Positions 3,275 to 25,674 of a stretch of DNA of 32,000 nt are shown one piece after another. Under the pieces are notes generated by a model. The model saw nothing but the letters and a program-made list of their open reading frames with translations. It was not told the DNA's origin and did not search any database. Position 1 is the first letter of the stretch; the number at the start of each line of letters is the position of its first letter. The translations under genes were made by a program, and so were the position numbers. Source of the stretch: a bacterium (GTDB lineage: Bacteria; UBP7; UBA6624; JBBIMK01); NCBI GenBank assembly GCA_037444445.1, contig JBBIMK010000007.1, forward strand, positions 47,647 through 79,646, in the 5' to 3' direction.

Positions 3275-3414
3275 TTTCTATACCTCCTCTTCCATATTTC
3301 TGCAAACTTTTCAGGCTTCAAATACGGACCGCAAGAGATTTCCTCTACCCCGCTTGAAGTTGCCTCCCGCTCTCATCGGTATTTTTCATCCTCCTGCGGA
3401 ACTTTTCAGCTCCG

Positions 3415-3732: not shown

Positions 3733-3896
3733 ATCTTTTCACCTCCTTTTCAAGAATTTTTGAATATCTCATCGCTCCATTCATTTCAATAATATCGCTT
3801 TCCTCAGTTCAGAATTGCTTCTCTCTGCACCGTCCGTAAACCTTTGTCCTGTCTCCCGCCTCATCCCAGTTTTCCCTTCCCACATCGGTATATAAA

Positions 3897-3926
3897 AGTA
3901 TATGGAGGTAGAACGAAACTTGTCAA
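3897..3926 (-). promoter_or_regulatory. Sigma70-type promoter for the small-paralog genes
   Basis: On the minus strand: TTGACA (3926-3921), an 18-nt spacer, then TATACT (3902-3897). The -35 is perfect and the -10 matches 5 of 6. The predicted TSS near 3890 gives a leader of about 158 nt before the ATG at 3732. Confidence 0.45.
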
Positions 3927-4061
3927 GTGAATTGTGATTGCTCCATCAAGATGTGGCATATTTTTCACTGCTATATATCATATTCCGATGTTTTCCGGTT
4001 TTCTTTTTTCAGGAACTTTGCCGAGAATCTGTGCGGGGGGGGACTATATGGAAGATTCGTA

Positions 4062-5021: not shown

Positions 5022-5120
5022 CCCCTGAACTTCTTTGCCTCACGAAGGATATTTTATCAAAATACCGCACAAAGAATCATCTGACAAAAAAAGGAGGTCT
5101 CGCTTTCAGGGTGATATAAT

Positions 5121-9462: not shown

Positions 9463-9464
9463 CC

Positions 9465-9507
9465 AGACGAAAAGAGAAGGGGGCTCCCTGAAACTGGAGC
9501 CCCCTTC
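9465..9507 (-). terminator. Rho-independent terminator after the pseudopilin gene
   Basis: Perfect 12-bp stem GAAGGGGGCTCC (9476-9487) / GGAGCCCCCTTC (9496-9507) with an 8-nt loop. On the minus strand it is followed by TCTCTTTTCG. Confidence 0.7.
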
Positions 9508-9523
9508 CGTCAGTGGAATCCGA

Positions 9524-10180
9524 TTAGGTGCCTGAACTGAAGATGTGAATCATCGTGGAAGGTGTATCGGCAGGGTCCGTTCTCCAGTCAGTGCCACCCG
9601 GGTCACCATCGTCAGCGGTGGAGCACGGGTCGTCCACGGTATCCAATTGGATGACAGCGCCTGTGGTCGGTGTGCCCTGTTGGGGTGCCGACTCGCCGTC
9701 TACAGCGATGTCCGTCTCGTTGGCTTCTCTGGCAGGCACAGCACCGAAATAGACGAAACGGTCATTAGCGATACCGTCCCCATTCCGGTCGGCGTTGGAA
9801 TCATCCCCGCCCCCGCTGTCAGTGTCATCCAGCATAAAGCACCCTCCATATTGGTCCACATAGCGAGGAGTGGCGTTGCGTCTCGGAGGCTTATCCATAT
9901 AGGGCCCCTTCCAGTTCGTCGCGCCCAGTGGGTTGGTGAGCAACTGTTGAACGGCATTATCCGTCCCGTCTGTCGGGTCCACTGGCCAGGCGCCCACATC
10001 AGCGAAATATTCCAGAGTGCCTTTCCGGAGGTCCTCCGCCTCGGAGAGATTCCGGGACACACGCCCCTTTCGGATTTGCCCGAACACCTGGGGCAGAATG
10101 ACAGCGGCCAGAATGGCGATAATCGCCACCACCGCAATTAACTCGATGAGAGTGAAGCCCTTCTTCACATTTCTCATCAC
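9524..10180 (-). CDS. GspG/PulG-like pseudopilin (prepilin-type N-terminal methylation domain) with acidic C-terminal extension
   Basis: Prepilin motif KKGFTLIELIAVVAIIAILAAV. GspG-like core LEYFADVGAWP...WKGPYMDKPP. The C-terminal ~110 aa are D/G/T-rich and contain DSNADRNGDGIANDRF (a DxNxDGxxxD calcium-loop-like motif). GGAGG sits 9 nt before the ATG at 10177; the ORF formally opens with GTG at 10180. Confidence 0.85.
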   Translation of the reverse strand: MMRNVKKGFTLIELIAVVAIIAILAAVILPQVFGQIRKGRVSRNLSEAEDLRKGTLEYFADVGAWPVDPTDGTDNAVQQLLTNPLGATNWKGPYMDKPPRRNATPRYVDQYGGCFMLDDTDSGGGDDSNADRNGDGIANDRFVYFGAVPAREANETDIAVDGESAPQQGTPTTGAVIQLDTVDDPCSTADDGDPGGTDWRTDPADTPSTMIHIFSSGT

Positions 10181-10231
10181 CTAACACCTCCTTTTGGATT
10201 TTTTGTTCGCCTTCCGAACATTCTACTTTCA

Positions 10232-10237
10232 ATTATA
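10232..10237 (-). promoter_or_regulatory. Candidate -10 box of pseudopilin promoter
   Basis: Perfect TATAAT on the minus strand, about 50 nt upstream of the start codon. The -35 is poor (TCAAAA at 17 nt). Confidence 0.3.
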
Positions 10238-10299
10238 GTGAGGCAAATATAAATTTTTGATGAAAAAAATATGAAAGAATGATGAATTTTTAATGGGGG

Positions 10300-10980
10300 T
10301 CAGGGTTCAATTTTATACCCTAAACCGCGGACAGTTTTTAAGAGATTGGCGCAGGCGCCGATTTTTTCACGGATGGTTCCGATATGAACATCAATCGTCC
10401 GGTCCAGAATGGCTTTTTCATCCCCGTGCAGGCGGTCTAAAATCTCCTGCCGGTTAAACACCTTGCCTGGATGGCGGGCGAGGATGGCAAGAATCTTGAA
10501 CTCCGTGGGCGTTAGCGAGAGAGATTTTTTTCCACAGCGGGCCTCAAATCGCTGGATGTCTAATTCCAGGTCGCCGGCACGCAGGATGGAAGGCTCTGCG
10601 GACCTGATTTCGGTCCGCCTCAGAATTGCTTTCACTCTCGCCACTAACTCTGCGGGGACGAAGGGCTTGACCAGATAATCATCGGCGCCAATAGCCAGGC
10701 CCTCAATCCGGTCGTAGTCGCCACCCTTCCCCGTAACCATGATGATAGGAAGGTAGGCGGTGCGAGCGTCTGACCGCAACTGCTTGCAGACCTCCGTTCC
10801 GCTCATCCCGGGTAAAAGCAGGTCCAGGATTAACAGGTCCGGGGGCCGACGGCGGATTTCCTCCAGCGCTTCCCTTCCATCGTAGATTTCCTGGGTTAGA
10901 AATCCCTCTTCTTTCATCAAGCTCGCCATCATCAGGCAGAGGTTTTGGTCATCTTCCACCACATAAATCAGTTTCGTCAT
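10300..10980 (-). CDS. OmpR/PhoB-family response regulator (receiver + winged-helix DNA-binding domain)
   Basis: Receiver motifs: VEDD, phospho-acceptor context LLILDLLLPGMSG, and KPF. The C-terminal winged helix carries LT.TEF.IL..LA..PG.V..R..IL, and the protein ends VRGLGYKIEP. No histidine kinase is adjacent. Confidence 0.9.
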   Translation of the reverse strand: MTKLIYVVEDDQNLCLMMASLMKEEGFLTQEIYDGREALEEIRRRPPDLLILDLLLPGMSGTEVCKQLRSDARTAYLPIIMVTGKGGDYDRIEGLAIGADDYLVKPFVPAELVARVKAILRRTEIRSAEPSILRAGDLELDIQRFEARCGKKSLSLTPTEFKILAILARHPGKVFNRQEILDRLHGDEKAILDRTIDVHIGTIREKIGACANLLKTVRGLGYKIEP

Positions 10981-11009
10981 CCCTGTATTCCACCTCCAGC
11001 CTAACTATT

Positions 11010-12032
11010 TCATTTCAGGCTCAGGGAAATGACCTCTGAGGCATCCACGGGAAGGTCGCCGGAATCTGTTCGTAACAGGAGTCGTCCGTCGGGCAGGACA
11101 TCGCGAGCGGTGCCGCGGACTTCCCGCGAATCGCCCAGCAGGATTCGCACCGGGTCACCTAAAAAATCCGCATAGAAACGCCACTGCTCCAGGATGTCCG
11201 AAGCCTTACCCTCTTCCATCGCTCTCACTCCGTTTTCCATCTTCTCTAAAAATACCGCCAGTAACTTCTGTCGTGAAGTCGGACGGCCGAGAATCTCCCG
11301 CAAGGTGGTTACCCGCTCCTGAAGCCCCCCGGGAAAATCTACCAGAGAAGAGTTCACATTCACACCTACGCCAATAATCACATGCTCCAGGTCGCTCTGC
11401 CTGAAGGCGGATTCCACCAGAATTCCAGCAATCTTTCTTCGGGCAAATAGCACATCATTGGGCCAGAGCATGGAGGGGTGAACACCCGTTTCTTCCTCCA
11501 GGGCCTGGGCTAATTTGACACCGGTCAAAAAGGGAAGAAGAGAGGCTGAGGTTGCCTCCAGGGAAGGGAAAAGGATGAGGGAGAGGATGATATTTTTACC
11601 GAAAGGGGAGAACCACTTTCTGCCCCAGCGCCCCATACCTTTGGACTGGTATTCTGCAATCACAATCGTGCCATCGGGAACCCCGCGTTCAATCAACCGA
11701 CGGGCTTCCCGATTCGTGGAATCAATCACCCGGTGGTAGTAGCAGGTTCGGCCATACCGTCTCGTATTCAAAAAGGGAAAATACTGAAGAGGATGGAGGA
11801 TGTCTGGAACGCCGATGAGGCGGTAGCCCACTTTGGAGCGGGCTTCAATCCTGTAATTGAGAGCCTTGAAATACTGGATATCCTTCCACACGGAGGGGCG
11901 TGACAGGCCCATTTTTTCTGCAATTTCCTGCCCGGATACAAATTCCCCCTGACGGCTCAGTAGCGTATTCAATAGTTGAAGTTTTTCATCCGTGATGGCG
12001 AGTTTACCGTCTTTGCCTAACAGGGGGCTCAT
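11010..12032 (-). CDS. birA: Bifunctional biotin operon repressor / biotin-[acetyl-CoA-carboxylase] ligase
   Basis: N-terminal HTH (SGQEIAEKMGLSRPSVWKDIQYFKALNYRIE). Ligase motif QSKGMGRWGRKWFSP (GRGRxGRxW-type). The ATG overlaps the ribH stop as ATGA. Confidence 0.88.
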   Translation of the reverse strand: MSPLLGKDGKLAITDEKLQLLNTLLSRQGEFVSGQEIAEKMGLSRPSVWKDIQYFKALNYRIEARSKVGYRLIGVPDILHPLQYFPFLNTRRYGRTCYYHRVIDSTNREARRLIERGVPDGTIVIAEYQSKGMGRWGRKWFSPFGKNIILSLILFPSLEATSASLLPFLTGVKLAQALEEETGVHPSMLWPNDVLFARRKIAGILVESAFRQSDLEHVIIGVGVNVNSSLVDFPGGLQERVTTLREILGRPTSRQKLLAVFLEKMENGVRAMEEGKASDILEQWRFYADFLGDPVRILLGDSREVRGTARDVLPDGRLLLRTDSGDLPVDASEVISLSLK

Positions 12033-12517
12033 TTGCGACGAATGGCCCGAGAGAGGTGAACCATCTCCAGGCAGACGAGGGCGGCTTCTGCCCCCTTATT
12101 TCCCATTTTTCCCCCCGCCCGCTCCAGGGCTTGCTCCAGAGTATCCGCCGTGAGGACTCCGAAAGCAATTGGAACTTCACTCTCCAGGGTCAATCGAGCA
12201 ATCCCCCGACTGACCTCCGCCGCAATCACATCATAATGAGAGGTTTCCCCCTTGAGGACAGCGCCCAGAGCAATCACTCCGTCCCCTGCTTTCCCGCTCT
12301 TCAGAAGGGTGCGAATCGTAAAAGGAATCTCAAAAGAGCCTGGCACCCGATAAACGGCTATATGTTCCTCCGCTACCCCGTATCTGCACAGAGCATCCAC
12401 CGCACCCTGAAGAAGAGACTCGGTAACCAGCCCGTTGAACCGGCTCACGACAATGCTGAAAGTAAGCCCTGTTCCGTCCATCCGATTTAGGGCAGGACCC
12501 TTATTTCCTTTTTTCAT
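12029..12517 (-). CDS. ribH: 6,7-dimethyl-8-ribityllumazine synthase
   Basis: Motifs VPGSFEIP, GAVLKGETSHYDVIA, FGVLT, ERAGGKMGNKGAEAA. Confidence 0.92.
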   Translation of the reverse strand: MKKGNKGPALNRMDGTGLTFSIVVSRFNGLVTESLLQGAVDALCRYGVAEEHIAVYRVPGSFEIPFTIRTLLKSGKAGDGVIALGAVLKGETSHYDVIAAEVSRGIARLTLESEVPIAFGVLTADTLEQALERAGGKMGNKGAEAALVCLEMVHLSRAIRRK

Positions 12518-12530
12518 AAAAATAGTCGCC

Positions 12531-13751
12531 TCAATCCTCTTCCCATTGGAGTTGAAACAGGTGGCCTAATTTTTCTTTTTTTGCCTTCAGATACTTCACA
12601 TTTTCCTTATTGGGTAAGATTTCCAGAGGGACTCGCTCCACAATCTCCAGGCCGAAGCCTTTCAAGCCGATAATTTTTTTCGGGTTGTTCGTCATCAGGC
12701 GCATTTTCCGCACATTCAGGTCGAGGAGAATTTGGGCGCCGACGCCGTATTTTCGCAAGTCCGGAGGAAAGCCAAGGGCCTGGTTCGCCTCCACAGTGTC
12801 CAGCCCCCTCTCCTGGAGAGCGTAGGCTTTAATTTTATTATGCAAGCCAATGCCACGACCCTCCTGGCGCATATACACGAAAACTCCTTTCCCCGTTTGA
12901 CCTATCTGGGAGAGAGCAATCTCTAATTGCTCCCCGCAATCACATCGCAGGGAATGAAACACATCTCCGGTCAAGCATTCCGATTGGACGCGGACCAGCA
13001 CCGGGTCTTCCGGATGAATCTCGCCCATAACCAGCGCAACATGATGCTGGTGATTGAACTTTTCGCGATAAGCATAAATGGTGAATACGCCAAAAGGAGT
13101 GGGAAGGTGAGCCTGAGAAACCTTTTCAATCAACCTCTCGCGCTGGAGGCGGAATTCAATCAAATCTGCGATGGAAATGATTCGCAGGTGATGCTTCTGA
13201 GCAAATATCTCCAGGTCTGGGAAGCGTGCCATGGTTCCATCTTCTTTCATAATCTCGCAGATAACGCCCGCGGGATACAGCCCGGCCAGTTTAGCCAGGT
13301 CTACACTGGCTTCCGTATGGCCTGCTCGTTCTAAAACCCCACCCCTGCGGGCCTTGAGAGGGAAGATATGGCCGGGGCGCTGAAGGTCCCCCGCCTTCGT
13401 CTCCGGGTTCACTAAAACCCAAATCGTTCGCGCCCGGTCGTAGGCAGAAATGCCAGTCGTAATCCCCTGGCGTGCATCCACCGAAACGGTGAAGGCTGTG
13501 CCATTGCGGTCTTCCATCTGCATATCATTAGACATCAGGGGCAGACCCAGTTCCTCCACTCTCTCCGGAGTCAGTGCGGCGCAAATCAGCCCCCGCGCTT
13601 CACGGGCCATAAAGTTAATGGCCTCAGGTGTAATCTTCTGGGCCGCCATCACCAGGTCGCCTTCATTCTCACGCCCCTCATCATCCACCACAATCACAAA
13701 CCGCCCTTGCTGGATGTCCTCAATGGCATCCTTAATTCGGCTTAATGGCAT
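12531..13751 (-). CDS. ribBA: Bifunctional 3,4-dihydroxy-2-butanone-4-phosphate synthase / GTP cyclohydrolase II
   Basis: The DHBP synthase half has DDEGRENEGDL, GHIFPL and HTEASVDLA. The GTP cyclohydrolase II half has ECLTGDVFHSLRCDCGEQL and YMRQEGRGIGL. Confidence 0.93.
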   Translation of the reverse strand: MPLSRIKDAIEDIQQGRFVIVVDDEGRENEGDLVMAAQKITPEAINFMAREARGLICAALTPERVEELGLPLMSNDMQMEDRNGTAFTVSVDARQGITTGISAYDRARTIWVLVNPETKAGDLQRPGHIFPLKARRGGVLERAGHTEASVDLAKLAGLYPAGVICEIMKEDGTMARFPDLEIFAQKHHLRIISIADLIEFRLQRERLIEKVSQAHLPTPFGVFTIYAYREKFNHQHHVALVMGEIHPEDPVLVRVQSECLTGDVFHSLRCDCGEQLEIALSQIGQTGKGVFVYMRQEGRGIGLHNKIKAYALQERGLDTVEANQALGFPPDLRKYGVGAQILLDLNVRKMRLMTNNPKKIIGLKGFGLEIVERVPLEILPNKENVKYLKAKKEKLGHLFQLQWEED

Positions 13752-14915: not shown

Positions 14916-16340
14916 TCAGGGAACCCCCAGGGCATCCAACTGCTGGTTAGCCACCAGAAGCAGGTAGCGAGCATATTTGGCGTTGTGGACCCCAAAGGAG
15001 CCGTCGTGCTCCACATAATAATAGTTATAACGGGCACGCTTTATCTGAATGGGAATCAGGTCCTGGCCTGTGGCTCCAGAAGAGGGACCACCGTATGATG
15101 AATATTCCCAGGAAAGAGCCCCTTTTCCTTGAATATTCGCCTGCACTCCCCAGGCATCCAGGCGGTTTTTCAAGGTGGCGAGTTTGGCTTCTATGTCGCT
15201 TTTCGTATTCAGCATTCTGGCGGCGGCGTCGCTGATGCTGTGGCAGGGAGAACATCCCTCCAGCCGAATCCTGAAGGTGTGTCCTGTAATTGCCGGGTTG
15301 TCCTCACTTTCATATTCCTTCATAGAAACATGGCAGGTGGCACACTGCCTGGGAGTGAAGCGATGTTCGGAAAGCGCCGGGGAACCCCCGTCTTCCACAC
15401 CCCCCAGCCCCAGGAGAAAGTCCAATTGAACTGAGTAGTGCGCAGCGCGAGAAGTATTCATCGCCAGGCCTGCATCTGTCGGGTCGGCGCCCCGCCGGTT
15501 GTGGCACTGCCCGCATACCTGGTCTATCCGACTATACACATTGATGTCTGTGGAATCTCCACCCTGATAGGGGTCTTGCTCCGGGTCCCAGTATTCTTTA
15601 TGCCTTAACTGGGCTTCTTCACCTTCTGCGGCATTATTCCCGGTAGCCTTGTGAGGGTCGTGGCAAACCGCACAGGTTTGAGCCGTCATCTCTTCCCTGG
15701 TCTTACCCACTAAATTCGGTGAGGCAAGGGCGTTTTCCATGACCATCACCCGGTAATCACCCGAGTGGCAGGGACCGCAGGAAACGAGTCGTGCCGGGCC
15801 ATTCACAGGGTCCGCTAAATATCCAGCCACATGCTCGGTAACTTTCGTGTGAGAGCTAACTTCCCACTCATCGTAGGTGGGATGATGAGCATCCGTGTGG
15901 CATTTCCCGCAAAGACTTGCGGCGAGAATCCCGGGATAGGTGAGAATTTTCGTCTTATCCCCACCAGAACTCACATGTTGCTCTCCAGGCCCGTGGCAGT
16001 TCTCACATTGGACACCCCCCAGCCCCGGGGTAGATGTGGCATCTTTGAAACCGGACTCAAACCCATATCCCAGAGTGTGGCATGACAGGCATTCTGAATT
16101 CGTGCCGAATCCGATTTGCTGTAGACTCGTCAGTGCCTGAGAATGCCTGGTGGTCTGCACTTCATCGTAGATAGTTTGGTGGCAGTTTTTGCAGGTGTCC
16201 GCACCCACATACCTTCCCCCGCTGGGTAGTGGCAGTGTGGGACCTGTCGTTACTCCACCCTGATTACAGGTGACCACCGTGAAAACTGCCAGAATCACCA
16301 GCATCCACATACTTCCACTCACCCTCCATCTCATACCCAA
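14916..16340 (-). CDS. Multihaem c-type cytochrome, 9 CXXCH, probable lipoprotein/surface cytochrome
   Basis: CXXCH x9: CKNCH, CLSCH, CENCH, CGKCH, CGPCH, CAVCH, CGQCH, CATCH, CSPCH. The signal sequence ends AVFTVVT|C (imperfect lipobox). The formal start is TTG at 16340; an ATG at 16334 is also well spaced from GGAGGG. Confidence 0.85.
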   Translation of the reverse strand: MGMRWRVSGSMWMLVILAVFTVVTCNQGGVTTGPTLPLPSGGRYVGADTCKNCHQTIYDEVQTTRHSQALTSLQQIGFGTNSECLSCHTLGYGFESGFKDATSTPGLGGVQCENCHGPGEQHVSSGGDKTKILTYPGILAASLCGKCHTDAHHPTYDEWEVSSHTKVTEHVAGYLADPVNGPARLVSCGPCHSGDYRVMVMENALASPNLVGKTREEMTAQTCAVCHDPHKATGNNAAEGEEAQLRHKEYWDPEQDPYQGGDSTDINVYSRIDQVCGQCHNRRGADPTDAGLAMNTSRAAHYSVQLDFLLGLGGVEDGGSPALSEHRFTPRQCATCHVSMKEYESEDNPAITGHTFRIRLEGCSPCHSISDAAARMLNTKSDIEAKLATLKNRLDAWGVQANIQGKGALSWEYSSYGGPSSGATGQDLIPIQIKRARYNYYYVEHDGSFGVHNAKYARYLLLVANQQLDALGVP

Positions 16341-16376
16341 CTATCCCTCCTTTATCATTTTGGTTTCTTTGAAGTT

Positions 16377-17594
16377 TTATTGCCCTCCTGACCAGTCCAG
16401 CCCCTGTTTGTTGGGATTCTTGTGAATATCGTAGGTCACATCATCATCCGTTCCAGCCATTTGCTGTTTTGTCTTGCTCATATGGCATCGCTTGCAGGAA
16501 TAATCCAGGGTTAAATAACCAATCCCTGCCGTGAGGACAACCCGGTCCGGTTCATCCGTTCCACCGATATCATTCGGGTCATCTTCCAGAAAGGCACGGT
16601 CGGGGTCCATAGAAATGGCAAACAGGTGAGTTTTCACATCCCCCACGAGAGTATTGGTATCTCCCACAGCGCTCTTCGTGGCCTGTGCCATATGGCAATC
16701 ATTGCAAGTCACCCCAGCCCGAGCCATAGTGCTGGAAGAGAATGTTGTGGCTACATCCTTATGGCACTCTTCGCAGGTCACGCGAATGGATTCGCTGGAT
16801 TTTCTGTGAGGGTCGTGGCAGGTGATGCATTCCATCCGGGCATTCTGGTAGTGACGAGTAGCAATATATTCGTTATATTGCTCGTGATGGGCAATGAAGG
16901 GAGCCTTCGCCAGAATCGTAGTAGGGAAGGGGCTGGAGGTTTTCCTCACACCCCGATAATGGCAGTCTCCGCAAAGGTCAGAACTCTGAAACTTCGGGAG
17001 GCTTTCACGGAAATTGACATGACGAGAGCCTCCTCCACCATGGCATCTTTCACACTGGATGCCTTCAAACACCCATGTGCCCGAGATTCCCGGTAGCTCG
17101 CCCTGGTGGCCATCAGAAGAGAACCCCGTCGTATGGCAGGAGCCACAATTATACTTCTTCGTCCCACAGGGATTGCTTGTATACTTCACGAAACTGCCGG
17201 TTGCAAAGTTATATTGTGCTCCATCTCCAGTGAGAATATACCCGTTCTTGTCCACATACCGCGCCTTCCAGCGATACCCTCCAATCACATAACTGATGTC
17301 GTTCCAGTTCGTAGGAGAGCAGACACTTTGTGCTGGAAAAGGAATTTCAGGCAAGCCATAAAAGGGTGCTTCAATCGCTAAGGATGTAGTGCGTAATTTC
17401 CAGGGATGTCCGCTTCTGAGAAAACTATCGTAAATGTCCAGGTGACATCTGCCACAGACTGGAGAGCCGACAAACTCCGCAGGACCCAGAGCCTCTTCGG
17501 ATATCACCTTCTGTAAACTCTTCCCGCAGGAAGCCAGCCCTGCAAGGAAGAAAACCACTACAAGGAAATGCCTGATTCCTTCTTTCACTTTCAT
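16377..17594 (-). CDS. Multihaem c-type cytochrome lipoprotein, 8 CXXCH
   Basis: Lipobox FFLAGLAS|CGK. CXXCH x8: CGRCH, CGSCH, CERCH, CGDCH, CITCH, CEECH, CNDCH, CKRCH. There is a 12-nt gap to the upstream barrel gene, with a GAGGGA RBS. Confidence 0.87.
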   Translation of the reverse strand: MKVKEGIRHFLVVVFFLAGLASCGKSLQKVISEEALGPAEFVGSPVCGRCHLDIYDSFLRSGHPWKLRTTSLAIEAPFYGLPEIPFPAQSVCSPTNWNDISYVIGGYRWKARYVDKNGYILTGDGAQYNFATGSFVKYTSNPCGTKKYNCGSCHTTGFSSDGHQGELPGISGTWVFEGIQCERCHGGGGSRHVNFRESLPKFQSSDLCGDCHYRGVRKTSSPFPTTILAKAPFIAHHEQYNEYIATRHYQNARMECITCHDPHRKSSESIRVTCEECHKDVATTFSSSTMARAGVTCNDCHMAQATKSAVGDTNTLVGDVKTHLFAISMDPDRAFLEDDPNDIGGTDEPDRVVLTAGIGYLTLDYSCKRCHMSKTKQQMAGTDDDVTYDIHKNPNKQGLDWSGGQ

Positions 17595-17606
17595 CCTCTA
17601 TCCCTC

Positions 17607-19226
17607 CTAAAAATTTTTTCTGATTTGAAATTCCAAAAACCGGGCATCCCCAAAGGTAGCATCCAGTTTATCCTCATAAAAATTGTAGATAGCGGAAAGA
17701 TTTACAGTGAAATCCGGTAAGAATTCCCGGGAAACAGAAACATCCCAGTTATCCTCCCGAATCTTATTGCTCTCAAAGAAGTTGCCCACCTTCGTCCTGC
17801 CAAAAAGATAAGAAATAGAGGCGTGGGTCTTATCATCCAACCCCCAATCTACACCCAAGAGTGTGGATTCCTGATTCTGCACAATGTCGTAAGGGGCAGG
17901 AAACTCTCCTGCCGGCCTCAATTCCTTCAAGAATCCCTCCACATCCCACTGGGAGAAGAGATAGGTAGCAGTAAGGACAAGGTTCTCCCGGACCGCACAG
18001 GAGGCAGTGAAATTGTGAAGCGTCCATTCCCGCCCCTGAACCCCATAAGGCGAAACGAGGTCATAATTCCCGATTTCGTCCACGAAGAAATAAGTGAAGG
18101 AAAGAGAACCCGTTGGTGCATAAGAGAAGGAAATATCCCCACGGGATTTTTTGAGTGGCAATTCTTCCGTGTTCATCAGGTGAGTGTTCAGAATTTGCAA
18201 GGCATCCCGGAGGGTTCGGCGGTAAGAGGTTTTCAGGGAAAATTTTTTGAACTTTGCCCGGTAGGTCACCCCGTATTCTCTGGTTCTTTGCTGTTGGATT
18301 TCCGTTCCTCCCAAATCCGTCGTATCCCAGAAAGCATTCGCCTGAAGAGTATGATAGGAATAGGAAGAAGAATCCATTTTCCAGGTATAATCTGCGGAAA
18401 GGTCCAGGCGTTCGCCATTTAAGGTCAACCCTGTGGGAGAATCAGATTTATGTCGGCGGGTAGAGTAGGTGGAAAGTAACGAGAAATCTTTCCCGGGATT
18501 GAAAGAGACGCTGGAGGACCAATCTGTGATGGAAACATCACCGGGATTGGAGACATCATCCAGACTCTCCAGACCACGGGTGAGAAGGCTGGAGGAAAAA
18601 TAATAGGAACCCTTCCAGCGGGACTGAGCAGTCATAGAAAAAGAGGAAAGGTCATACCCCAGAGAGGGGTGGAAGAAATGGATTCTGGAGGCATCGGCAA
18701 GGAAGGCAAGAGAACCGAGGATGGCTTGTCCGGAAATGCCCCGAATCCGGTTCTTCTGCCCCACCTCTTCCCGGAAGGTATTCCAACCCATTTTATCCTC
18801 CTCGGATAAATACACAGTCAGATGAGCAGGATTCAGAGGAAGTATCGTCCAGTTCCAGGCGTGGATATTTCGCTGGGTGCTCTCGGCGAAAGAAAAATAG
18901 TGGGGATATTTCTCATAGGAACCTTTGGAAATCAAAGAATCCTTGTAATTCCAGTCCAGACCTGCGAAAACATCCTGTCCCCCCAAGCCACTCCCCGAGA
19001 AACGGAAGAAAAAGGGTGAAGGTTCACCCTGAAGGCTCAATTTGAAAAGATAAAAACTACTGGGGGGAAAATACTGATATTCATTCCAGCGAGCCATCCG
19101 ATTCTGCCGCTCCCGCACCGAGCGGACCCCGGGAGCAATCTCCTCCACAAAGAGAACAGCACCCATAGAGACCAAACTCACGCTGAGAAGGAAACCGAAA
19201 ACACAGAGGGAAAGTCGTCTCTTCAT
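17607..19226 (-). CDS. Outer-membrane beta-barrel protein, positional analogue of MtrB/PioB/DmsF
   Basis: Signal peptide present. The ~510-aa mature protein shows alternating amphipathic strands rich in Y/S/T/G. The C-terminus ...LEFQIRKNF carries the terminal Phe typical of BAM substrates. The gene starts 10 nt after the decahaem gene stop. Confidence 0.72.
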   Translation of the reverse strand: MKRRLSLCVFGFLLSVSLVSMGAVLFVEEIAPGVRSVRERQNRMARWNEYQYFPPSSFYLFKLSLQGEPSPFFFRFSGSGLGGQDVFAGLDWNYKDSLISKGSYEKYPHYFSFAESTQRNIHAWNWTILPLNPAHLTVYLSEEDKMGWNTFREEVGQKNRIRGISGQAILGSLAFLADASRIHFFHPSLGYDLSSFSMTAQSRWKGSYYFSSSLLTRGLESLDDVSNPGDVSITDWSSSVSFNPGKDFSLLSTYSTRRHKSDSPTGLTLNGERLDLSADYTWKMDSSSYSYHTLQANAFWDTTDLGGTEIQQQRTREYGVTYRAKFKKFSLKTSYRRTLRDALQILNTHLMNTEELPLKKSRGDISFSYAPTGSLSFTYFFVDEIGNYDLVSPYGVQGREWTLHNFTASCAVRENLVLTATYLFSQWDVEGFLKELRPAGEFPAPYDIVQNQESTLLGVDWGLDDKTHASISYLFGRTKVGNFFESNKIREDNWDVSVSREFLPDFTVNLSAIYNFYEDKLDATFGDARFLEFQIRKNF

Positions 19227-19236
19227 TCTTCACCCC

Positions 19237-20112
19237 CTAATTCAGAAACCGCTTATCTCTGTTGGAACCATGAATGCTCTTGTGGCATCGGGTGCAACGC
19301 ATGAGTTCTGTGCGGGAGTTTTTATGAAATAGAAAAGCATCTGCATGGCACTGCAGGCAGAGAGCAGGTTGACGAAGCGCCAGCAAATCCTGATTGGGCG
19401 AACCATGCGAGAGATGGCAGGCGGAACAGGATTCCAGAACCGGCTTGTGCTCATAAACGAAAGGACCCATTTTTTCCTGATGACATTTCACGCAGGGTGT
19501 CGTTCGGGAAGGCTGACGCTGGAGCATCTTCAGGCTCTCGTGAGGATTATGACAGTCGGAGCAGGATACCTTTTTCTCACGAATCGGATGCCGGGATGGC
19601 ATCTGAATTTGCGCCTTTAACGATGGATGGCAGGAAAGGCAGAGCGGGGTTTCCTCCTCCTTGAGAAGCCCTTTCTTTCCACGATGGGGGTCGTGACAGG
19701 ATGTGCAGGAGGTCCCCCGGCGAGAATGCTGGGTTAATTTCCAGTCCTTCCGTTCATGGCAGGAAGTGCAAGCCACAGCAATCTCATCGGGTGAAGTGGT
19801 CCGAAAATTCCTAATCTCCGTTCCATCCGCTTTCTCTATGTGAAGAGAGCCAGGACCGTGGCACGCCTCACATCCGCTTTTCCTGGAGGGTTCCTCTTTT
19901 TCAAATAAAATCCGGTGCGCCGTGGCTTTGAACCCCACTTCTTTCCCCTCGTGGCAAGTGATGCACTGGCTGAACCCCACATACTCCTTTTTAGCAGGTT
20001 CTTCCGCAAGAACAGGGAATGACCACCAGAGGAAAAAAACAGCGGTCATCCACAGGAAGGATGTCCGCTTCACGCCCCCTGTTGCGGTGTCCCTTTTTTC
20101 ACTCATCTTCAT
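19237..20112 (-). CDS. Periplasmic decahaem c-type cytochrome, MtrA/DmsE family
   Basis: CXXCH x10 in 291 aa. The family-typical block is MGPFVYEHKPVLESCSACHLSHGSPNQDLL. Sec signal ...WWSFPVLA|EEP. The RBS GGAGGG abuts the first ATG, so the third codon ATG (20106) is the likelier start. Confidence 0.88.
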   Translation of the reverse strand: MKMSEKRDTATGGVKRTSFLWMTAVFFLWWSFPVLAEEPAKKEYVGFSQCITCHEGKEVGFKATAHRILFEKEEPSRKSGCEACHGPGSLHIEKADGTEIRNFRTTSPDEIAVACTSCHERKDWKLTQHSRRGTSCTSCHDPHRGKKGLLKEEETPLCLSCHPSLKAQIQMPSRHPIREKKVSCSDCHNPHESLKMLQRQPSRTTPCVKCHQEKMGPFVYEHKPVLESCSACHLSHGSPNQDLLALRQPALCLQCHADAFLFHKNSRTELMRCTRCHKSIHGSNRDKRFLN

Positions 20113-20258
20113 CCCTCCAGCGCCCTTCCATCATCCATTCTGATACTCTGAAAGCACTGAGACAATGACTTCTATCAGAAATTTTCCTGACTTTCTGCAA
20201 AGGGGAAATGAATATGGATGAACCCTGTATGAAAAAAGAATCACTTTACATATTGTAT
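20068..20258. repeat. Direct repeat copy A (183 bp perfect, 191 bp with 1 mismatch): promoter/5' UTR/first 15 codons
   Basis: 20068-20250 is identical base-for-base to 25484-25666 (offset 5416). The match extends to 20258/25674 with one mismatch. Confidence 0.95.
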
Positions 20259-20270
20259 CGGTTTCTAAGG

Positions 20271-21344
20271 CTACTTATAGGCATAATAAAAGGTCAGCCT
20301 GTAGAAGAGGTCGTTCTTCGGGGTGGGTCCGGAAACGGGCTTATCATACCTCACCATTTCGAGGTTTGGAATCAGATGCACATCCGGAGCGAGTGCGTAA
20401 TCCAGCCCGAGAAGGTAGAAAGCAGGTTGGGCGTCCGGTGAAACGGAGAGATAGGCGATGTTGTTAGCCCCTGGCACAGGGTCGCTCACCCTATCCATAC
20501 GAAAGAATGGCTTCACCTTCTCTGAAGTTTGATAATCCGCATAAAAGGAAAGCACGGAGAGTTCCAGGTCCCTGTCAGGAGGGGGTCGTTTTCGGGTCTG
20601 CACGGCATAAAGAAGCCCGCCACGAAATGCCTTCTTTTTGTAAACCAAAAATCCCTGGAGAGTGCGCCAGTCCTGATTCTGCGGCTTATTCCACAGGTCC
20701 GCATATCCTTCCACATAGAGTTCCGGAGTGAGCCAGCGGGAAAGAGAAGTATACACGGTTTTCCCTTTATCAGTTTCTGCCTTCGTTCCGCTTCCATTGC
20801 CCAGCATAACCCAGTAAGCGGTTCTCTTTCTTCCATCCAGATAGCCCCGGATGGAAACACCGGTATCTCTGGATTCTCCCATTTTGTAAAGGTCCAATGG
20901 AGTTTTCTCCACGGGGCGATATCCTAAAATCCCCTCTACACTTTCCCAGGTAGGGGTAGGTATCAGGCCAAAAGAAATACTCCGAAGACCCCGGGAATGC
21001 TGCAAGTAAGCATCTTTCACATAGGGCTTTAGCGTATCGCTGGTGGTAAAATCGCCGGGACTGTTCATCTCCAGCCTGAAACGAATCGCAAACCCGTTTT
21101 CCAGTTTCTGGTCGTAGGTGAAGTAAATCCGCCGGAACCAGAAGCCATTCATTCCTTCAATGGTTTCATCATGATGCCGGGAAGCAAAGTAGTAGTCGCC
21201 AAACATATAGCCGGAGATTTTCCCCGGCTCCTTTTTCCCTTCCTCAGCCATCGCTGAACCGGAAACCAGGCCGCCGAAAGTCAATCCGAAAAAAATACCC
21301 GCTATCACCAGCCATTTCTCAACTTGTTGCGTCCGAAAATTCAT
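20271..21344 (-). CDS. Outer-membrane porin-like beta-barrel (possibly anion-selective OprO/P-like)
   Basis: Sec signal ...GLVSGSAMA|EE. Amphipathic strand pattern: GYMFGDYYFASRH, FWFRRIYFTYDQKL, FAIRFRLEMNS. The start is 3 nt after the Mo-subunit stop, so the two are co-transcribed. Confidence 0.68.
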   Translation of the reverse strand: MNFRTQQVEKWLVIAGIFFGLTFGGLVSGSAMAEEGKKEPGKISGYMFGDYYFASRHHDETIEGMNGFWFRRIYFTYDQKLENGFAIRFRLEMNSPGDFTTSDTLKPYVKDAYLQHSRGLRSISFGLIPTPTWESVEGILGYRPVEKTPLDLYKMGESRDTGVSIRGYLDGRKRTAYWVMLGNGSGTKAETDKGKTVYTSLSRWLTPELYVEGYADLWNKPQNQDWRTLQGFLVYKKKAFRGGLLYAVQTRKRPPPDRDLELSVLSFYADYQTSEKVKPFFRMDRVSDPVPGANNIAYLSVSPDAQPAFYLLGLDYALAPDVHLIPNLEMVRYDKPVSGPTPKNDLFYRLTFYYAYK

Positions 21345-21347
21345 CTT

Positions 21348-24300
21348 CTAACTCCCTCCTTCACCTTTTTTTTCAGATACCAGCCTCACCTTTGTATCGT
21401 AGAACGAAACACTTCCACCGACCGGATCGAGCAGGCACGTGTTCTTCAGATAGTCATCCAGTCGCATGGCGGCGTTGGCGTGAACACCTGTGGCGCGACG
21501 CGGGTCGCCTGTGATTGTCTTTCCATCCACAACAACATCAGATGAACCGTTTGCCCAATGGCCGTGTCCCAGTGAAAAACCGATGATGCCGGGTCGAATC
21601 CCTTCAATGACTTTCACCTCTCCGACCATCGGTTTCTTTACGCCATTCTTGAGATCCCACACTCCCTCGGCGTTGGACCTGGAAACAAACTTTACCTTCA
21701 TCCCATCACTCAAACCGAGTCGGCTTGCATCAATAGAATTGACCAGCACGAAGTTCTGCGGCCGAATTGCACTCAGCCAGTAGTTTGTGATGGTTCGGCT
21801 CTTTGTCTGCGTGATATCACGAAATGTAATCAGGTGAAGATTAAAGCCATCCCGTTCGTCGGTGACTTCCTTGCCGGTCACATCGGCAATCGGGAGATAC
21901 GTTGCCACAGGAAAGAGATTCTTTCCCGTGATTGCGGACTTCGCTTTGCCATATTTTTCCAGGTACAGATTGATAAGTTGTCCGTACTTGTTCTTGAACT
22001 TCTCTCCATCATAGGCCTTTTCGTAATCCTGGAAACGACCGCCGCGGTTGAGTACGTACACCACTTTCTTCCACCATTGTTCGCCGACGACCCTCTTCCA
22101 TCGTTCAACATCAAAGACTGTCTTTGGCAGATGACGACGGGCTTGTTCGAATTGCTGCAACTCCCACTGGTCTGCATCGGGGACTTCGTCGCCCGGTTTG
22201 TCTCCGGCGGCGAGATTCGCCACCATCCTTAAGTAGAAATCTTCCTGCCGCACAAGGTCCATCCCTTCGCCCAGACCATTCTTGCCGAAACCGGGCAGTC
22301 CCAATTTCTCTGCGATGCCGAGAATCATCGTCTCCAACGAGATTGGCTGTTGTTCGCCGAAGACCGTAACACTCTCCGGTATCGGCGCAATGACCGGGTT
22401 GCGCACCGGCTGGGCTTTCTGCGGAATGCTCGGATGGCTGCCATGAAATTCCCACCGCTCCAGGTAAGAGAGGTCGGGAAAAATGTAGTCGGCGTACATA
22501 GACATCTCACCGATGGTGATGTCGCTTGCCACATACAGTGGAATCTTGTTCACATCGGATAGGATTTCAATGTTGGTTTGTCCCCCTGGCAAGGAATATG
22601 TGGCTGCTGCCATATATGAGAAAAGAATCTTTGACGAATACGGATATGCATCACCCATTGATGGAATAATCTCCTGATAAATATCGCTGGAAAACGGAAA
22701 CCACTGTCGCTTTGCAGGATAGCCGTTGAAGATGGTGGACTCTTCGTAGTTCACCTCGTGGCGAATAGTGCTGATACCAAACGGACTAATCTTTTTGGGA
22801 TGGAGTCTGGCGAAGTTAAACGGATGGCCTTCTTTGGAGCCGTCAATGGAATATGTACTCGCCTTTATCAGCCCGCCCTTCCAGTCAAAGTTGCCGATGA
22901 GTGCATTGAGCGTATAGACCGCTAACACGTTGTAGAAGCCGTTCGTGTGTTGTGAGACGCCGCGGTGCGGGTCGGCGACCGCTTTCTTGCCGTGAGATGT
23001 GAACTCTTGCGCCAGTTCAATAATGTCGTTTGCTCTGATTCCGCAAATATCAGCCCACTGTTCAATCGTTTTTGATGATGCACTCTCGTACACAATTTGT
23101 AAGCCCGTCTTCACTGCAATGCCACCGACGCTTGTGTTAACGAACAGGTCGCCGACCACAGGATTCTTCTCATCGTTCGGGTCGAATGCCACCGGCTTTC
23201 CGTCCTTCATCACGACGAAGGCGTCAAACTCCCATTCTTTTCCATCCTTGGTTTGCCGTTTCTCTTTAGGCGCAAGGTTGATTTCCGATGCGCGTAAGAA
23301 CGAACCATCCTCCTTCACCAGCCAGGTGCCGTTCGTCCACGACTGTTCGCCGGCGGCGTTCGCTGCGGCTCGATTCGCATTCTGCAAGAACTTATCATCA
23401 TAGCGTTTGTTCTCGATGATCCAGCGAATCATTGCCAGAGCAAATGCTCCGTCCGTGCCCGGTTTGATCGGTACCCACTTGTATGCTTTCGATGCGATCT
23501 TCGAGAATCGTGGATCGACGACGGCAATCTTTACTTTCTTCTCAACGAGATTCTTCATCAGCTTCTTGGCATGATGAGGTGGACCATATCCGCCTTCAAT
23601 GTACGCTGAGCCGATCGCTAAAAGAAACTCCACATTGCTTGTGTCAGCCTGCCAGTAGAATTTCTGCCCGCCGGTCAACTTCCCCTCGGCGAACTGGTCG
23701 CTCATGGCTTTGCCCGTAAAGTAGAGCGAACCCTGGCAGACGGTCGTGTGCCCGTGTGCGTTGATGGAGCCGAACGAATCGCTGATGAAGCGCTTGATGA
23801 ATTCTGCCCGCCCGGCTTTCAGTCTTCCCCAGATGAAACTCACCTGATTGTTCTTCGGACCGAGATCGGGATGATCCGGATCGATGAGCGTGTGCAGATG
23901 ATTGGCAAACTTCTTCTTGAATTCTTCGACCGCCGCTTTCTTCTCCTCAGGAGTTTTCTTTTTCCGAATTTCTTCTATTGCCGAAGCCATCTCCTTTGCG
24001 ACTTTCGGATCCCGAAGCGCGTAGAACTCCTTCAACCCTTGAACATGGCGATTCTCTTCTCCCTTGACATGCGAGAACAGCTTTCCGCCGTTGACAATCT
24101 CGCTGACCGCTTGCTCGAAGGAAATCGTTTTCCACTTGTTCTCGCCGCGCTTGCCGGCTCGCTTGAGGACTTTGACCAGGCGATAAGGATCGTAGGCCGT
24201 TTGAATGCCGGCTTGACCTTTCGGACAGAGTGAGCCGTTGATCTTCGTCGTCTCGTTCAGCGGGGTCTTGTACGGCAGGCTCGGGACAAACGTCCAGGGA

Positions 24301-24596
24301 CTATACGGATTGCCTTCAATCTTCACCGCGACACCGTTGAGAACTTTCACTTTGATGCCGCAGCCGGTGTTGCATTGCAGACAAACCGAGCGCAAGATGT
24401 TTTCTGCTTTGGAAAGTTCGTACTCTTCGGCAGGGGAGAGCACGCCCGCCTCTGCTCTGGAAAAAAGGTTCTGTGCCCATTCCAGCTGGCTGAGTAATAC
24501 GGCGCTACCGCCAAGGAACGCAGAGCTTTTGAGAAAACTACGGCGGGTACGCGGCGTTGATTTGCTACGAGTTCTGCCGGTAATTTCGTTGTTCAT
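21348..24596 (-). CDS. Tat-exported molybdopterin (DMSO-reductase-family) oxidoreductase catalytic subunit, TtrA/PsrA-like
   Basis: Tat motif TRRSFLK in MNNEITGRTRSKSTPRTRRSFLKSSAFLGG. N-terminal Fe-S motif CLQCNTGC...C(PKG). MopB-type blocks HGHTTVCQGS and VVDPRFSK. At about 1080 aa it is of TtrA size. AGGAGG lies 7 nt before the ATG at 24596. The longer ORF to 24629 would overlap the upstream gene. Confidence 0.88.
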   Translation of the reverse strand: MNNEITGRTRSKSTPRTRRSFLKSSAFLGGSAVLLSQLEWAQNLFSRAEAGVLSPAEEYELSKAENILRSVCLQCNTGCGIKVKVLNGVAVKIEGNPYSPWTFVPSLPYKTPLNETTKINGSLCPKGQAGIQTAYDPYRLVKVLKRAGKRGENKWKTISFEQAVSEIVNGGKLFSHVKGEENRHVQGLKEFYALRDPKVAKEMASAIEEIRKKKTPEEKKAAVEEFKKKFANHLHTLIDPDHPDLGPKNNQVSFIWGRLKAGRAEFIKRFISDSFGSINAHGHTTVCQGSLYFTGKAMSDQFAEGKLTGGQKFYWQADTSNVEFLLAIGSAYIEGGYGPPHHAKKLMKNLVEKKVKIAVVDPRFSKIASKAYKWVPIKPGTDGAFALAMIRWIIENKRYDDKFLQNANRAAANAAGEQSWTNGTWLVKEDGSFLRASEINLAPKEKRQTKDGKEWEFDAFVVMKDGKPVAFDPNDEKNPVVGDLFVNTSVGGIAVKTGLQIVYESASSKTIEQWADICGIRANDIIELAQEFTSHGKKAVADPHRGVSQHTNGFYNVLAVYTLNALIGNFDWKGGLIKASTYSIDGSKEGHPFNFARLHPKKISPFGISTIRHEVNYEESTIFNGYPAKRQWFPFSSDIYQEIIPSMGDAYPYSSKILFSYMAAATYSLPGGQTNIEILSDVNKIPLYVASDITIGEMSMYADYIFPDLSYLERWEFHGSHPSIPQKAQPVRNPVIAPIPESVTVFGEQQPISLETMILGIAEKLGLPGFGKNGLGEGMDLVRQEDFYLRMVANLAAGDKPGDEVPDADQWELQQFEQARRHLPKTVFDVERWKRVVGEQWWKKVVYVLNRGGRFQDYEKAYDGEKFKNKYGQLINLYLEKYGKAKSAITGKNLFPVATYLPIADVTGKEVTDERDGFNLHLITFRDITQTKSRTITNYWLSAIRPQNFVLVNSIDASRLGLSDGMKVKFVSRSNAEGVWDLKNGVKKPMVGEVKVIEGIRPGIIGFSLGHGHWANGSSDVVVDGKTITGDPRRATGVHANAAMRLDDYLKNTCLLDPVGGSVSFYDTKVRLVSEKKGEGGS

Positions 24597-24607
24597 TATG
24601 CGGCCTC

Positions 24608-25528
24608 CTATGAATGACAAACCATGCATGTCTGTTCTGGTTCGTCATGCAGATAGTAAATCATCGGTTCCGCCCCGCTGGCGAGATTCAGGCGCACTGC
24701 TTTGTGGCGTTTGAGCAGTTTGGAGACGAGACTGTCGTTGTCATTGAGGTCGCCGAAGTGCATAGCCTGACCGGTGCAGGTTGTAACGCAGGCGGGGAGT
24801 TCACCGGCATCAATGCGTTGGGTGCAGAAGTGACACTTACGCGTGGTGCCTTTTGTATCTTTGCGAGTCCATCCAATTCCGTATTCCCTGAACGACCGTT
24901 TCTCGTATGGCTGGAGAGCGGGCGTGCCGTCGGTGTAGTTTTTTCCCTCATCGTACCACAGCGAGTACGGGTACGGGCACGCTTTGCTGGCAGCTTCAAA
25001 GACTTTCTTCCCCTTCATCTTCTTGTAGTGGATCACGACGATGCCATCCGGTCGCCGGGACATGGAACCGGGGATAACACGGTTAGCCGCTTCAATACAC
25101 GGAGCGTTCTTACATTGCATGCAATTGGTCGGCATGAAGAAGCGGCGAAGTTCCGGGTAAGAACCATCCTCTACTTCCGCAACGGTACGATACCTGACGC
25201 CGGGAGGCAGATTATTCTCCGCTATGCAGGCGACAGCACACGCATTGCAACCGATACACTTGCGAATGTCAATTACCATCGCCCACTTCCGCTGCTTCAT
25301 CGGCTTTTCCAACGCACGCTGAAGGTCATTGTGCATCGTGAGCATGTCGTTGCCCGGAGTACCGGTGACCGTTTTAGCCAAAAGGGTTCCCACTTCTTTT
25401 ACTCCGGGAAGAAACGCTGTTGCAGCAACTGCGCCTGCTGCAACACCCGTCGTGCGCTTGAAAAAGGCACGACGCGAGAGCCTCTTCACGCCCCCTGTTG
25501 CGGTGTCCCTTTTTTCACTCATCTTCAT
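24608..25528 (-). CDS. Tat-signal 4x[4Fe-4S] ferredoxin-type electron-transfer subunit (TtrB/PsrB/DmsB family)
   Basis: Tat motif SRRAFFK. Cys clusters: CIGCNACAVAC, CMQCKNAPC, a CPYP segment, and CHFCTQRIDAGELPACVTTC. The first 15 codons are identical to those of the decahaem gene (repeat). Confidence 0.9.
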   Translation of the reverse strand: MKMSEKRDTATGGVKRLSRRAFFKRTTGVAAGAVAATAFLPGVKEVGTLLAKTVTGTPGNDMLTMHNDLQRALEKPMKQRKWAMVIDIRKCIGCNACAVACIAENNLPPGVRYRTVAEVEDGSYPELRRFFMPTNCMQCKNAPCIEAANRVIPGSMSRRPDGIVVIHYKKMKGKKVFEAASKACPYPYSLWYDEGKNYTDGTPALQPYEKRSFREYGIGWTRKDTKGTTRKCHFCTQRIDAGELPACVTTCTGQAMHFGDLNDNDSLVSKLLKRHKAVRLNLASGAEPMIYYLHDEPEQTCMVCHS

Positions 25529-25674
25529 CCCTCCAGCGCCCTTCCATCATCCATTCTGATACTCTGAAAGCACTGAGACAATGACTTCTATCAGAAATTT
25601 TCCTGACTTTCTGCAAAGGGGAAATGAATATGGATGAACCCTGTATGAAAAAAGAATCACTTTACACATTGTAT
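25484..25674. repeat. Direct repeat copy B (183 bp perfect, 191 bp with 1 mismatch)
   Basis: Identical to 20068-20250 (see copy A). Confidence 0.95.

Follow-up and report, generated by a model that had tools for sequence, protein, structure and literature searches.

How does a periplasmic molybdoenzyme exchange electrons when no membrane anchor is encoded with it, and is an outer-membrane cytochrome conduit encoded beside it part of the answer? These questions are raised by seven genes in a 32,000-nt stretch of bacterial DNA, which we call the window (assembly GCA_037444445.1, contig JBBIMK010000007.1, positions 47,647 to 79,646; lineage UBP7). The genes encode the iron-sulfur subunit B and the catalytic subunit A of a molybdoenzyme, a porin-like protein, a decahaem cytochrome, an outer-membrane barrel and two multihaem lipoproteins. 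An earlier, sequence-only reading had proposed that the enzyme exchanges electrons with the haems of the conduit alone and bypasses the quinone pool. We favour a cytochrome-fed periplasmic reductase of an oxyanion, probably arsenate, that is co-regulated with a mineral-reducing conduit, and give this reading as a whole a probability of about 0.5. It is carried by the make-up of subunit B, the kinship of A and of the conduit, a duplicated putative promoter and leader, and the recurrence of the pairing elsewhere. Homologous loci in other genomes and contigs bear our own L labels.

An iron-sulfur subunit with a C-terminal CXXCH motif

Subunit B (24608-25528, minus strand, 306 aa) has a Fer4_11 match and a twin-arginine translocation (Tat) signal, and scores far under the cutoffs of the ArrB, TtrB and DsrO models. 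It had been read as a protein with four [4Fe-4S] clusters; we count 12 cluster cysteines, which correspond to three clusters, and a CXXCH motif at the C-terminus. This motif (C301-M-V-C304-H305, codons 24614-24628, minus strand) is a predicted attachment site for haem c. It lies in the tail ...DEPEQTCMVCHS, and the endings of such tails are exemplified by ...YYLDDDPEQTCMVCHS.

The tail is tied to a specific loss. We compared 71 B subunits, 16 of them tailed (including that of the window and the distant one of L085) and 55 non-tailed. A C-terminal CXXCH occurs in every one of the 16 anchor-less proteins and in none of the other 55. In all 16, A stands in place of the fourth cysteine of group II, and M (15/16), K/R and A take the places of the first three cysteines of group III, with the remaining 12 cysteines retained; all 55 non-tailed proteins have 16 cysteines. 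Gain of the CXXCH thus co-varies perfectly with loss of these four residues, which we assign, by the NarH/DmsB ligand scheme, as the probable ligands of the fourth cluster, FS4. FS4 is the distal cluster facing the membrane subunit and the quinol site, and C102 of DmsB, in group III, is its classic mutant. In a neighbour-joining tree the tailed proteins form a single clade with L085 as the deepest branch.

From these sequence patterns, B is most likely built for three clusters and a c-type haem on its tail, and the covalently bound haem would serve as the port by which electrons enter or leave the enzyme. Haem attachment after Tat export is plausible by analogy: a short CXXCH tag placed at a C-terminus is converted to a haem peptide in the periplasm of E. 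coli, and the Tat-exported NosZ receives its metal centres after export. A further residue may contribute. The position of the first group III cysteine, between C184 and C232 of the window protein, is occupied by methionine in 15 of the 16 tailed subunits and by phenylalanine in L085, and this methionine could coordinate the predicted haem axially or simply fill the cavity of FS4.

The tail was gained exactly where four FS4 cysteines were lost, and the CXXCH could for that reason also supply ligands for a replacement cluster near FS4, for example a His-ligated one resembling that of the [NiFe] hydrogenase small subunit, or form a redox disulfide. His-ligated surface clusters that talk to cytochromes do exist. 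Two cysteines and one histidine provide only three ligands, however, and a CXXCH whose histidine is invariant (16/16) is the canonical haem c motif; together with the methionine as a plausible axial ligand and the E. coli haem peptides, this leaves the replacement-cluster explanation somewhat unlikely.

The literature searched, limited in coverage and so no proof of novelty, held no published iron-sulfur subunit with a CXXCH tail. If the tail does bind haem, the enzyme would to our knowledge have no precedent among complex iron-sulfur molybdoenzymes, a covalent c-haem standing in for its quinol-side cluster, and, if true, this would describe a simple evolutionary route by which an enzyme is unplugged from the membrane and plugged into a cytochrome network.

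The catalytic subunit, its porin and the probable substrate

Subunit A (21348-24629, minus strand) comprises Molybdop_Fe4S4, Molybdopterin and Molydop_binding domains. Both subunits carry the Tat signals that had been noticed at first reading (SRRAFFK in B, TRRSFLK in A). The probable start of A is at 24596, 11 codons 3' of the long-ORF (open reading frame) start, and yields 1082 aa, as in the public record; the extra stretch of the longer form (24597-24629) overlaps the end of the B gene, and the shorter start is more likely. Among named models TtrA scores best (NF011567: 486.9 bits, E = 1e-145), though far below its equivalog cutoff of 1750; the PhsA score is much lower than that for TtrA, and those for ArrA (NF041714: 121.6 bits, cutoff 1600) and DmsA (139 bits, cutoff 778) are both below cutoff. 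The ArrA structure 6CZ7 is matched at E = 3e-21.

The label 'TtrBA-like' is best taken to mean the clade of TtrA homologues or alternative arsenate reductases (PMC11462812, PMC5492636), and A is no equivalog of the Salmonella TtrA. A has 3432 homologues at 55-89% identity in many phyla, and those at 55-65% come from Ignavibacteriota, Myxococcota, Desulfobacterota, Planctomycetota, Chloroflexota and others. It is 59% identical over ~1065 aa to the homologue of Anaeromyxobacter sp. PSR-1 (L025) and 58-59% identical to Melioribacteraceae and Ignavibacterium loci. Placed by pairwise identity, A belongs to the bacterial TtrA-homologue or alternative respiratory arsenate reductase clade. The TtrA homologues of PSR-1 and Geobacter sp. 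OR-1 are induced by As(V), 14- and 6-fold, and have As(V) reductase activity (PMC11462812). In Melioribacter roseus, As(V) likewise induces a ttrBCA-like cluster, ahead of which ArrTSR-like regulators are encoded (PMC11462812, PMC5492636, PMC3534657), and in the MopB phylogeny TtrA, SrdA and an alternative arsenate reductase share a single clade of versatile catalysis (PMC10100899).

We surveyed the architectures of the A family in 80 genome loci fetched through A and in extra contigs, and found three layouts. The first is B-NrfD-A, the order of ttrBCA, with NrfD identified by Pfam. In the second, a PpcA-like triheme c7 cytochrome precedes B-A, often followed by an SBF (Acr3-type) transporter; one PSR-1 tandem pair is of this kind. 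The third, porin-B-A with no anchor, is closest to the window (A 64-89% identical) and comes from metagenome-assembled genomes of Ignavibacteriales and Bacteroidota. None of the 16 loci of this nearest subclade has an adjacent NrfD gene, and all have lost the presumed FS4 ligands; the enzyme is thus anchor-less as first proposed, and its clade is not one that always relies on a membrane anchor. In L025, from a cultured arsenate respirer, two paralogous B-A pairs stand in tandem (968-5040 and 8864-13225), the second preceded by the PpcA-like triheme c7 gene.

Neighbouring genes speak to the substrate. Polytopic transporter genes of the SBF family, by Pfam, lie 3' of A in L047 (11529-12677) and L067 (13263-14543); genes with nine to ten predicted transmembrane segments (TM9-10) in this position 3' of c7-B-A loci had been candidates for an NrfD anchor, an identity ruled out by the Pfam result. 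We take the SBF family to include the Acr3 arsenite pumps, and its presence beside c7-B-A loci supports an arsenic role for the A family. Genes for ArsR, ArsP_1 and an ArsC-type (LMWPc) phosphatase follow molybdenum cofactor genes in L169, and genes that we read by eye as ArsP/ArsR lie near L078 and L008. A histidine kinase and a sigma-54 response regulator are encoded upstream in L007, L010, L051 and L062. By analogy with its relatives, the substrate of the window enzyme is most likely arsenate, with tetrathionate and selenate as alternatives.

The substrate could reach the enzyme through the 357-aa product of the adjoining gene (20271-21344, minus strand). Its description as a porin stands at the family level, where homologues match BBP2 (4/9) or Porin_O_P (2/9); the protein itself has no direct Pfam match. 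A profile of its family found no match among Protein Data Bank (PDB) sequences, and a single-sequence AlphaFold2 (AF2) model reached a mean predicted local distance difference test score (pLDDT) of 31.5. Homologues adjoin both B-A and B-NrfD-A genes in Ignavibacteria and Bacteroidota, and by this company the protein is probably a substrate (anion) porin.

The conduit, its leader and its probable tie to the enzyme

The seven genes are co-directional on the minus strand and separated by gaps of 3-36 nt, with one exception of 158 nt (20113-20270) between the porin and decahaem genes, as had been described. The decahaem gene (19237-20112, minus strand) encodes a periplasmic protein of 291 aa with a Sec signal, ten CXXCH motifs and the block GPFVYEHKPVLESCSACHLSHGSPNQDLL. 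It exceeds the cutoff of TIGR03508 (219.2 bits against 192.2) and aligns full-length with MtrA (PDB 6R2Q_A; E = 6.5e-39, residues 46-286 on 63-326). Judged from these matches, the protein is a genuine member of the MtrA/DmsE family.

The 539-aa protein encoded downstream (17607-19226, minus strand), which ends in the phenylalanine noted before, is less easily recognised. It has no Pfam or NCBIfam match even at E values up to 10, the MtrB/PioB models included, so that the profile check proposed for it came out negative; its family profile matches nothing among PDB sequences, and a word-indexed search returned the sister strain as the sole match. An exhaustive search of 1.84 billion proteins yielded 20 representatives. 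An AF2 model built with these relatives has a pLDDT of 88.6 and 26 strands, and by Foldseek its top match is MtrB (6R2Q_B; E = 1.9e-18, query TM-score (TMq) 0.82), ahead by ten orders of magnitude of the next (E ~4e-8, TMq <0.5). The model is confident, and it predicts an MtrB-like sheath that would hold the decahaem; a 26-strand barrel that fits on MtrB is not the narrow one that would have told against a conduit. The locus thus adds a compact, sequence-divergent family of MtrB-like barrels (539 aa, 26 strands) overlooked by profile searches. The gene order decahaem, barrel, surface cytochrome is shared by the window, L083, L085, L087, L111 and L122, and the conduit is truly of the MtrAB type.

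Two predicted cell-surface cytochromes complete the conduit. The octahaem lipoprotein (16377-17594, minus strand, 405 aa) has eight CXXCH motifs and the lipobox LAGLAS|C; its gene also comes after the barrel gene in L085, L087, L111 and L122. The second, a putative lipoprotein (14916-16340, minus strand, 474 aa), has nine CXXCH motifs, so that the haem counts of 10, 8 and 9 agree with the first reading; its orthologue in L087 (69% identity) has a canonical lipobox. Weak matches link the octahaem to 6I5B and MccA, and the nonahaem to 6QVM and 6I5B. PDB entries 6I5B and 6QVM are OcwA and OmhA, surface multihaem reductases of Gram-positive metal reducers. In a sister strain (L082:1-4600, aligned with window positions 14916-20112), a frameshift near residue 56-79 interrupts the decahaem reading frame, and ~598 nt are missing from within the nonahaem gene, either from decay of the conduit in that strain or from a low-quality contig.

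A direct repeat joins the two halves of the cluster. It spans 194 nt at 99% identity and comprises ~146 nt upstream of the B and decahaem genes together with their 16 first codons (MKMSEKRDTATGGVKR). The first copy (25481-25674, minus strand) includes all intergenic DNA 5' of the B gene, and the second (20065-20258, minus strand) lies 5' of the decahaem gene and extends into it. The sister-strain contig L082 (Logan SRR11582170; 96% identical, proteins 95-98%) starts within the repeat, just 5' of its decahaem gene. Assemblers break contigs inside true repeats, and the break at this very place argues that the repeat is not an artefact of the window assembly.

By its position the repeat is a putative promoter, 5' untranslated region, ribosome-binding site and leader. 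The duplication behind the proposal that both halves stand under one promoter is real, and the identity of its copies would give both operons the same expression signals. It also fits recombination at the locus. A sigma-70 scan of the repeat gave no convincing promoter, and no terminator-like site was predicted in 20113-20270. A riboswitch in the leader, for example one for the molybdenum cofactor, was rejected, since neither the window nor the repeat gave an Rfam match and the fold of the leader RNA is unremarkable (z-score -1.2).

Does the enzyme belong with the conduit? A recurrent array suggests that it does. In L085/L086, co-directional genes with gaps of 4-78 nt encode a decahaem (41% identical), barrel (23%), octahaem (37%), porin (70%), tailed B (43%) and A (47%). 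A looser case is L088, where a conduit of decahaem, barrel, octahaem and nonahaem (the last 69% identical) has a homologue of A (62%) 8 kb upstream. The recurrence in L085, with the genes arranged differently, and the looser one in L088 make a functional link between enzyme and conduit plausible, and the two are probably connected electrically. Seen from the conduit, ~3/6 lineages of this rare type with usable context have a TtrA-like gene no more than 10 kb away, and the association extends across the deepest division of the tailed B subunits.

Other cytochromes accompany the same enzymes. Near the tailed locus L003, the gene of a 448-aa protein is followed by those of 12-haem and 3-haem cytochromes. 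Beside porin-B-A in Bacteroidota-like contigs, L171 (6037-7623) and L172 (22202-23252) encode multihaem cytochromes with the Por_Secre_tail domain of the type IX secretion system (T9SS), which suggests that extracellular cytochromes exported by this route are associated with the same enzyme subclade.

Several observations weigh against this reading. None of the 80 genome loci fetched through A has this conduit within 10 kb, so that the link is recurrent, not general, and the enzyme does not need the conduit. No cytochrome gene is near the tailed loci L004, L007, L010, L169, L170 and L173, and octahaem homologues also occur in many clusters with no recognisable decahaem-barrel pair. The 32-kb window yielded no ars genes and no ArrTSR-like regulators. 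Lastly, the conduit operon turns up like a cassette in differing surroundings, and its adjacency to the enzyme could partly reflect recombination: L087 and L088 (FWWM01001369.1 and FWPU01001027.1; ~9800-10000) share an identical conduit and ~190 nt upstream of it, then diverge fully, into a Rieske-cytochrome b-multihaem operon in L087 and, in L088, a cytochrome c-molybdoenzyme (808 aa)-FeS-NrfD-cytochrome c operon and the TtrA-like gene.

Taken further, these points would make the two operons unrelated neighbours joined by recombination, with the repeat as a scar or a shared anaerobic promoter and with no specific exchange of electrons. The empty survey and the cassette behaviour are what this explanation would lead one to see, as are the damaged decahaem and nonahaem genes of L082 and the mosaic composition of the locus, whose A is 89% identical to that of L002 and whose porin is 31% identical to that of L002 and 70% to that of L085. 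Chance proximity accounts poorly for a TtrA-like gene beside about half of the lineages of so rare a conduit (20 barrel representatives), for an association that reaches across the deepest tailed-B split, and for an enzyme adapted to a haem partner by loss of FS4 ligands and gain of the CXXCH. We judge the neighbours unlikely to be unrelated.

Electron routing and comparison with known systems

We propose that two co-regulated modules meet in a periplasmic network of c-type cytochromes. The first (B-A-porin) would be a soluble, Tat-exported periplasmic molybdoenzyme, its likeliest function respiratory arsenate reduction, with the substrate entering through the dedicated outer-membrane porin. 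The second would be the decahaem inside its 26-strand barrel, capped by the two multihaem lipoproteins and passing electrons to or from minerals. Menaquinol electrons would leave through a quinol dehydrogenase encoded outside the window, of the CymA/NrfH, NrfCD, CbcL or Rieske-cytochrome b type, enter periplasmic haems including the decahaem, and there split between oxyanion reduction by B-A and reduction of Fe(III)/Mn(IV) minerals at the surface. Such a pairing would make sense for arsenate that is sorbed on ferric minerals. We infer the contact between B and the decahaem, whether direct or pool-mediated, as well as the substrate, the direction of flow and the distal quinol dehydrogenase.

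Three considerations favour a quinol-fed haem network. Quinol modules adjoin related genes: besides the Rieske, cytochrome b and multihaem cytochrome genes next to the L087 conduit, octahaem-FeS-NrfD-like genes adjoin the homologous conduit of L122, and the tailed locus L171 adjoins a pair for cytochrome b and an 18-haem (CbcL-like) cytochrome and a Rieske gene. Periplasmic molybdoenzymes that have no anchor and take quinol electrons by way of cytochromes are known, as in ArrAB-CymA, Nap and Ser. And a circuit that stays within the periplasm and outer membrane would separate no charge over the inner membrane and, we reason, would conserve no energy. On these grounds the proposed bypass of the quinone pool is not supported and is the less likely possibility. 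The claim that the 27 haems are the only redox partners of the enzyme is not supported either and reflects the 32-kb view, which is also the scope of the search for a quinol dehydrogenase; in that scope, domain searches and ORF inspection bear out that there is no NrfD-like or NapC/CymA-like gene. The cluster likewise holds no polytopic gene, and the only polytopic ORFs of the window (6230-6946 and 7826-8596) are unrelated.

A haem-tagged B, with a c-type haem on its 5-residue C-terminal motif in place of FS4, that docks directly on the decahaem would hard-wire the periplasmic reductase, for arsenate or a sulfur or selenium oxyanion, to the conduit. Electrons from a mineral, an electrode or a partner cell could then power oxyanion reduction or, in reverse, oxyanion oxidation could be discharged onto minerals, largely independent of the quinone pool; we think this version quite improbable. 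Still more doubtful is the circuit of the sequence-only reading, in which B-A exchanges electrons with the conduit haems only and a periplasmic reaction of an oxyanion or sulfur compound is thereby coupled to a solid electron donor or acceptor outside the cell, with electrons flowing inward to the reductase or outward from an oxidised substrate. It draws on the lack of an anchor or quinol dehydrogenase in the window, on an enzyme that looks built for a haem partner, on the joining of the conduit and porin-B-A in one array in L085 and on the identical promoter of the two operons; MtrAB-type conduits can moreover run inward, as MtoAB and PioAB do in Fe(II) oxidisers. The visible part of the genome is only 32 kb, however, homologous conduits and tailed loci adjoin quinol-oxidising modules, and most tailed B-A loci have no conduit at all. 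The surface cytochromes resemble the terminal reductases OcwA and OmhA, and periplasmic reduction in such a circuit would use protons on the wrong side, which adds to the argument from energy.

A surface location for B-A, fed through the barrel and reducing an insoluble or sorbed substrate outside, has the DmsE/DmsF-fed, anchor-less surface DmsAB of Shewanella as a precedent and a pseudopilin gene in the window (9524-10180) in its favour, and is highly improbable given that porin genes adjoin B-A and even anchored B-NrfD-A (L051, L062), which points to substrate import into the periplasm, that the conduit has its own lipoprotein cytochromes in the MtrC position, and that a lipobox and a T9SS sorting domain are both missing from A as well as from B.

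The cytochrome-fed reductase that we prefer has close analogues, and the claim that no comparable system has been described is too strong: DmsEFAB, ArrAB-CymA and the c7-B-A relatives all come near it. In Shewanella oneidensis DmsEFAB, an extracellular DMSO reductase, genes for a DmsE/MtrA decahaem and a barrel are likewise clustered with those for a Tat-exported, anchor-less A/B molybdoenzyme of the DMSO-reductase superfamily. There the enzyme sits on the surface in the MtrC position, which two multihaem lipoproteins take here, and the porin suggests a periplasmic enzyme; the window A is of the Ttr/alternative-Arr clade and not a DmsA, and its B has the CXXCH tail and no FS4. ArrAB-CymA of Shewanella sp. 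ANA-3 resembles the proposed routing more closely, as a soluble, anchor-less periplasmic arsenate reductase that receives quinol electrons through a c-type cytochrome in a host with an Mtr system. Its A is in a different clade, however, its ArrB has no haem motif, and arr is neither clustered with mtr nor provided with a dedicated porin.

The reductases of the same family, namely the TtrA homologues of PSR-1, OR-1 and M. roseus (MROS_1074-1076), are 55-59% identical to A at L025, L051 and L062, and M. roseus-type loci also have a porin gene, with sigma-54 two-component regulators upstream. These loci are B-NrfD-A or c7-B-A with a 16-Cys B, whereas the window enzyme has no anchor, no c7 and no FS4, and is tailed. 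With Salmonella TtrBCA the enzyme shares the best model for A, and its anchored relatives share the B-C-A order; TtrC is found neither in the window nor beside the 16 tailed loci, and B has three clusters, not four. On the conduit side, Shewanella baltica MtrCAB (6R2Q) is matched by the decahaem along the full length of MtrA and by the 26-strand barrel model, which superposes on MtrB. The window barrel is ~110 residues short of the 649-residue 6R2Q_B and has no sequence-detectable similarity to MtrB/PioB, and the surface cytochromes are an octahaem and a nonahaem matching 6I5B and 6QVM, unlike the decahaems MtrC and OmcA.

No published Ttr-type enzyme clustered with MtrAB was found in the literature searched, whose limited coverage gives no proof of novelty. 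New here are the exchange of FS4 for a CXXCH tail in B, the recurrent clustering of this subclade with a compact conduit of MtrB-like type, and the doubled promoter/leader. In paddy soils, the dominant candidate arsenate-reductase gene among transcripts is reported to be of the clade of A (PMC11462812). Co-regulation and recurrent clustering of such an enzyme with a conduit to Fe(III) minerals would tie the reductive dissolution of ferric minerals mechanistically to arsenic mobilisation.

The genes that flank the cluster are unrelated and of a housekeeping kind: GNAT, acyl-CoA dehydrogenase, riboflavin synthesis genes and a gene like that for thioredoxin reductase (TrxR). The pseudopilin encoded at 9524-10180 is GspG-like and, with an orphan response regulator of the PhoB/OmpR type (10300-10980), lies 4-5 kb downstream of the cluster; nearby, no kinase cognate to the regulator was seen. 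Further off, at the left end of the window, a gene bearing no relation to the cluster (221-2935) encodes a 904-aa AAA_16 and TPR protein of MalT/STAND-like type.

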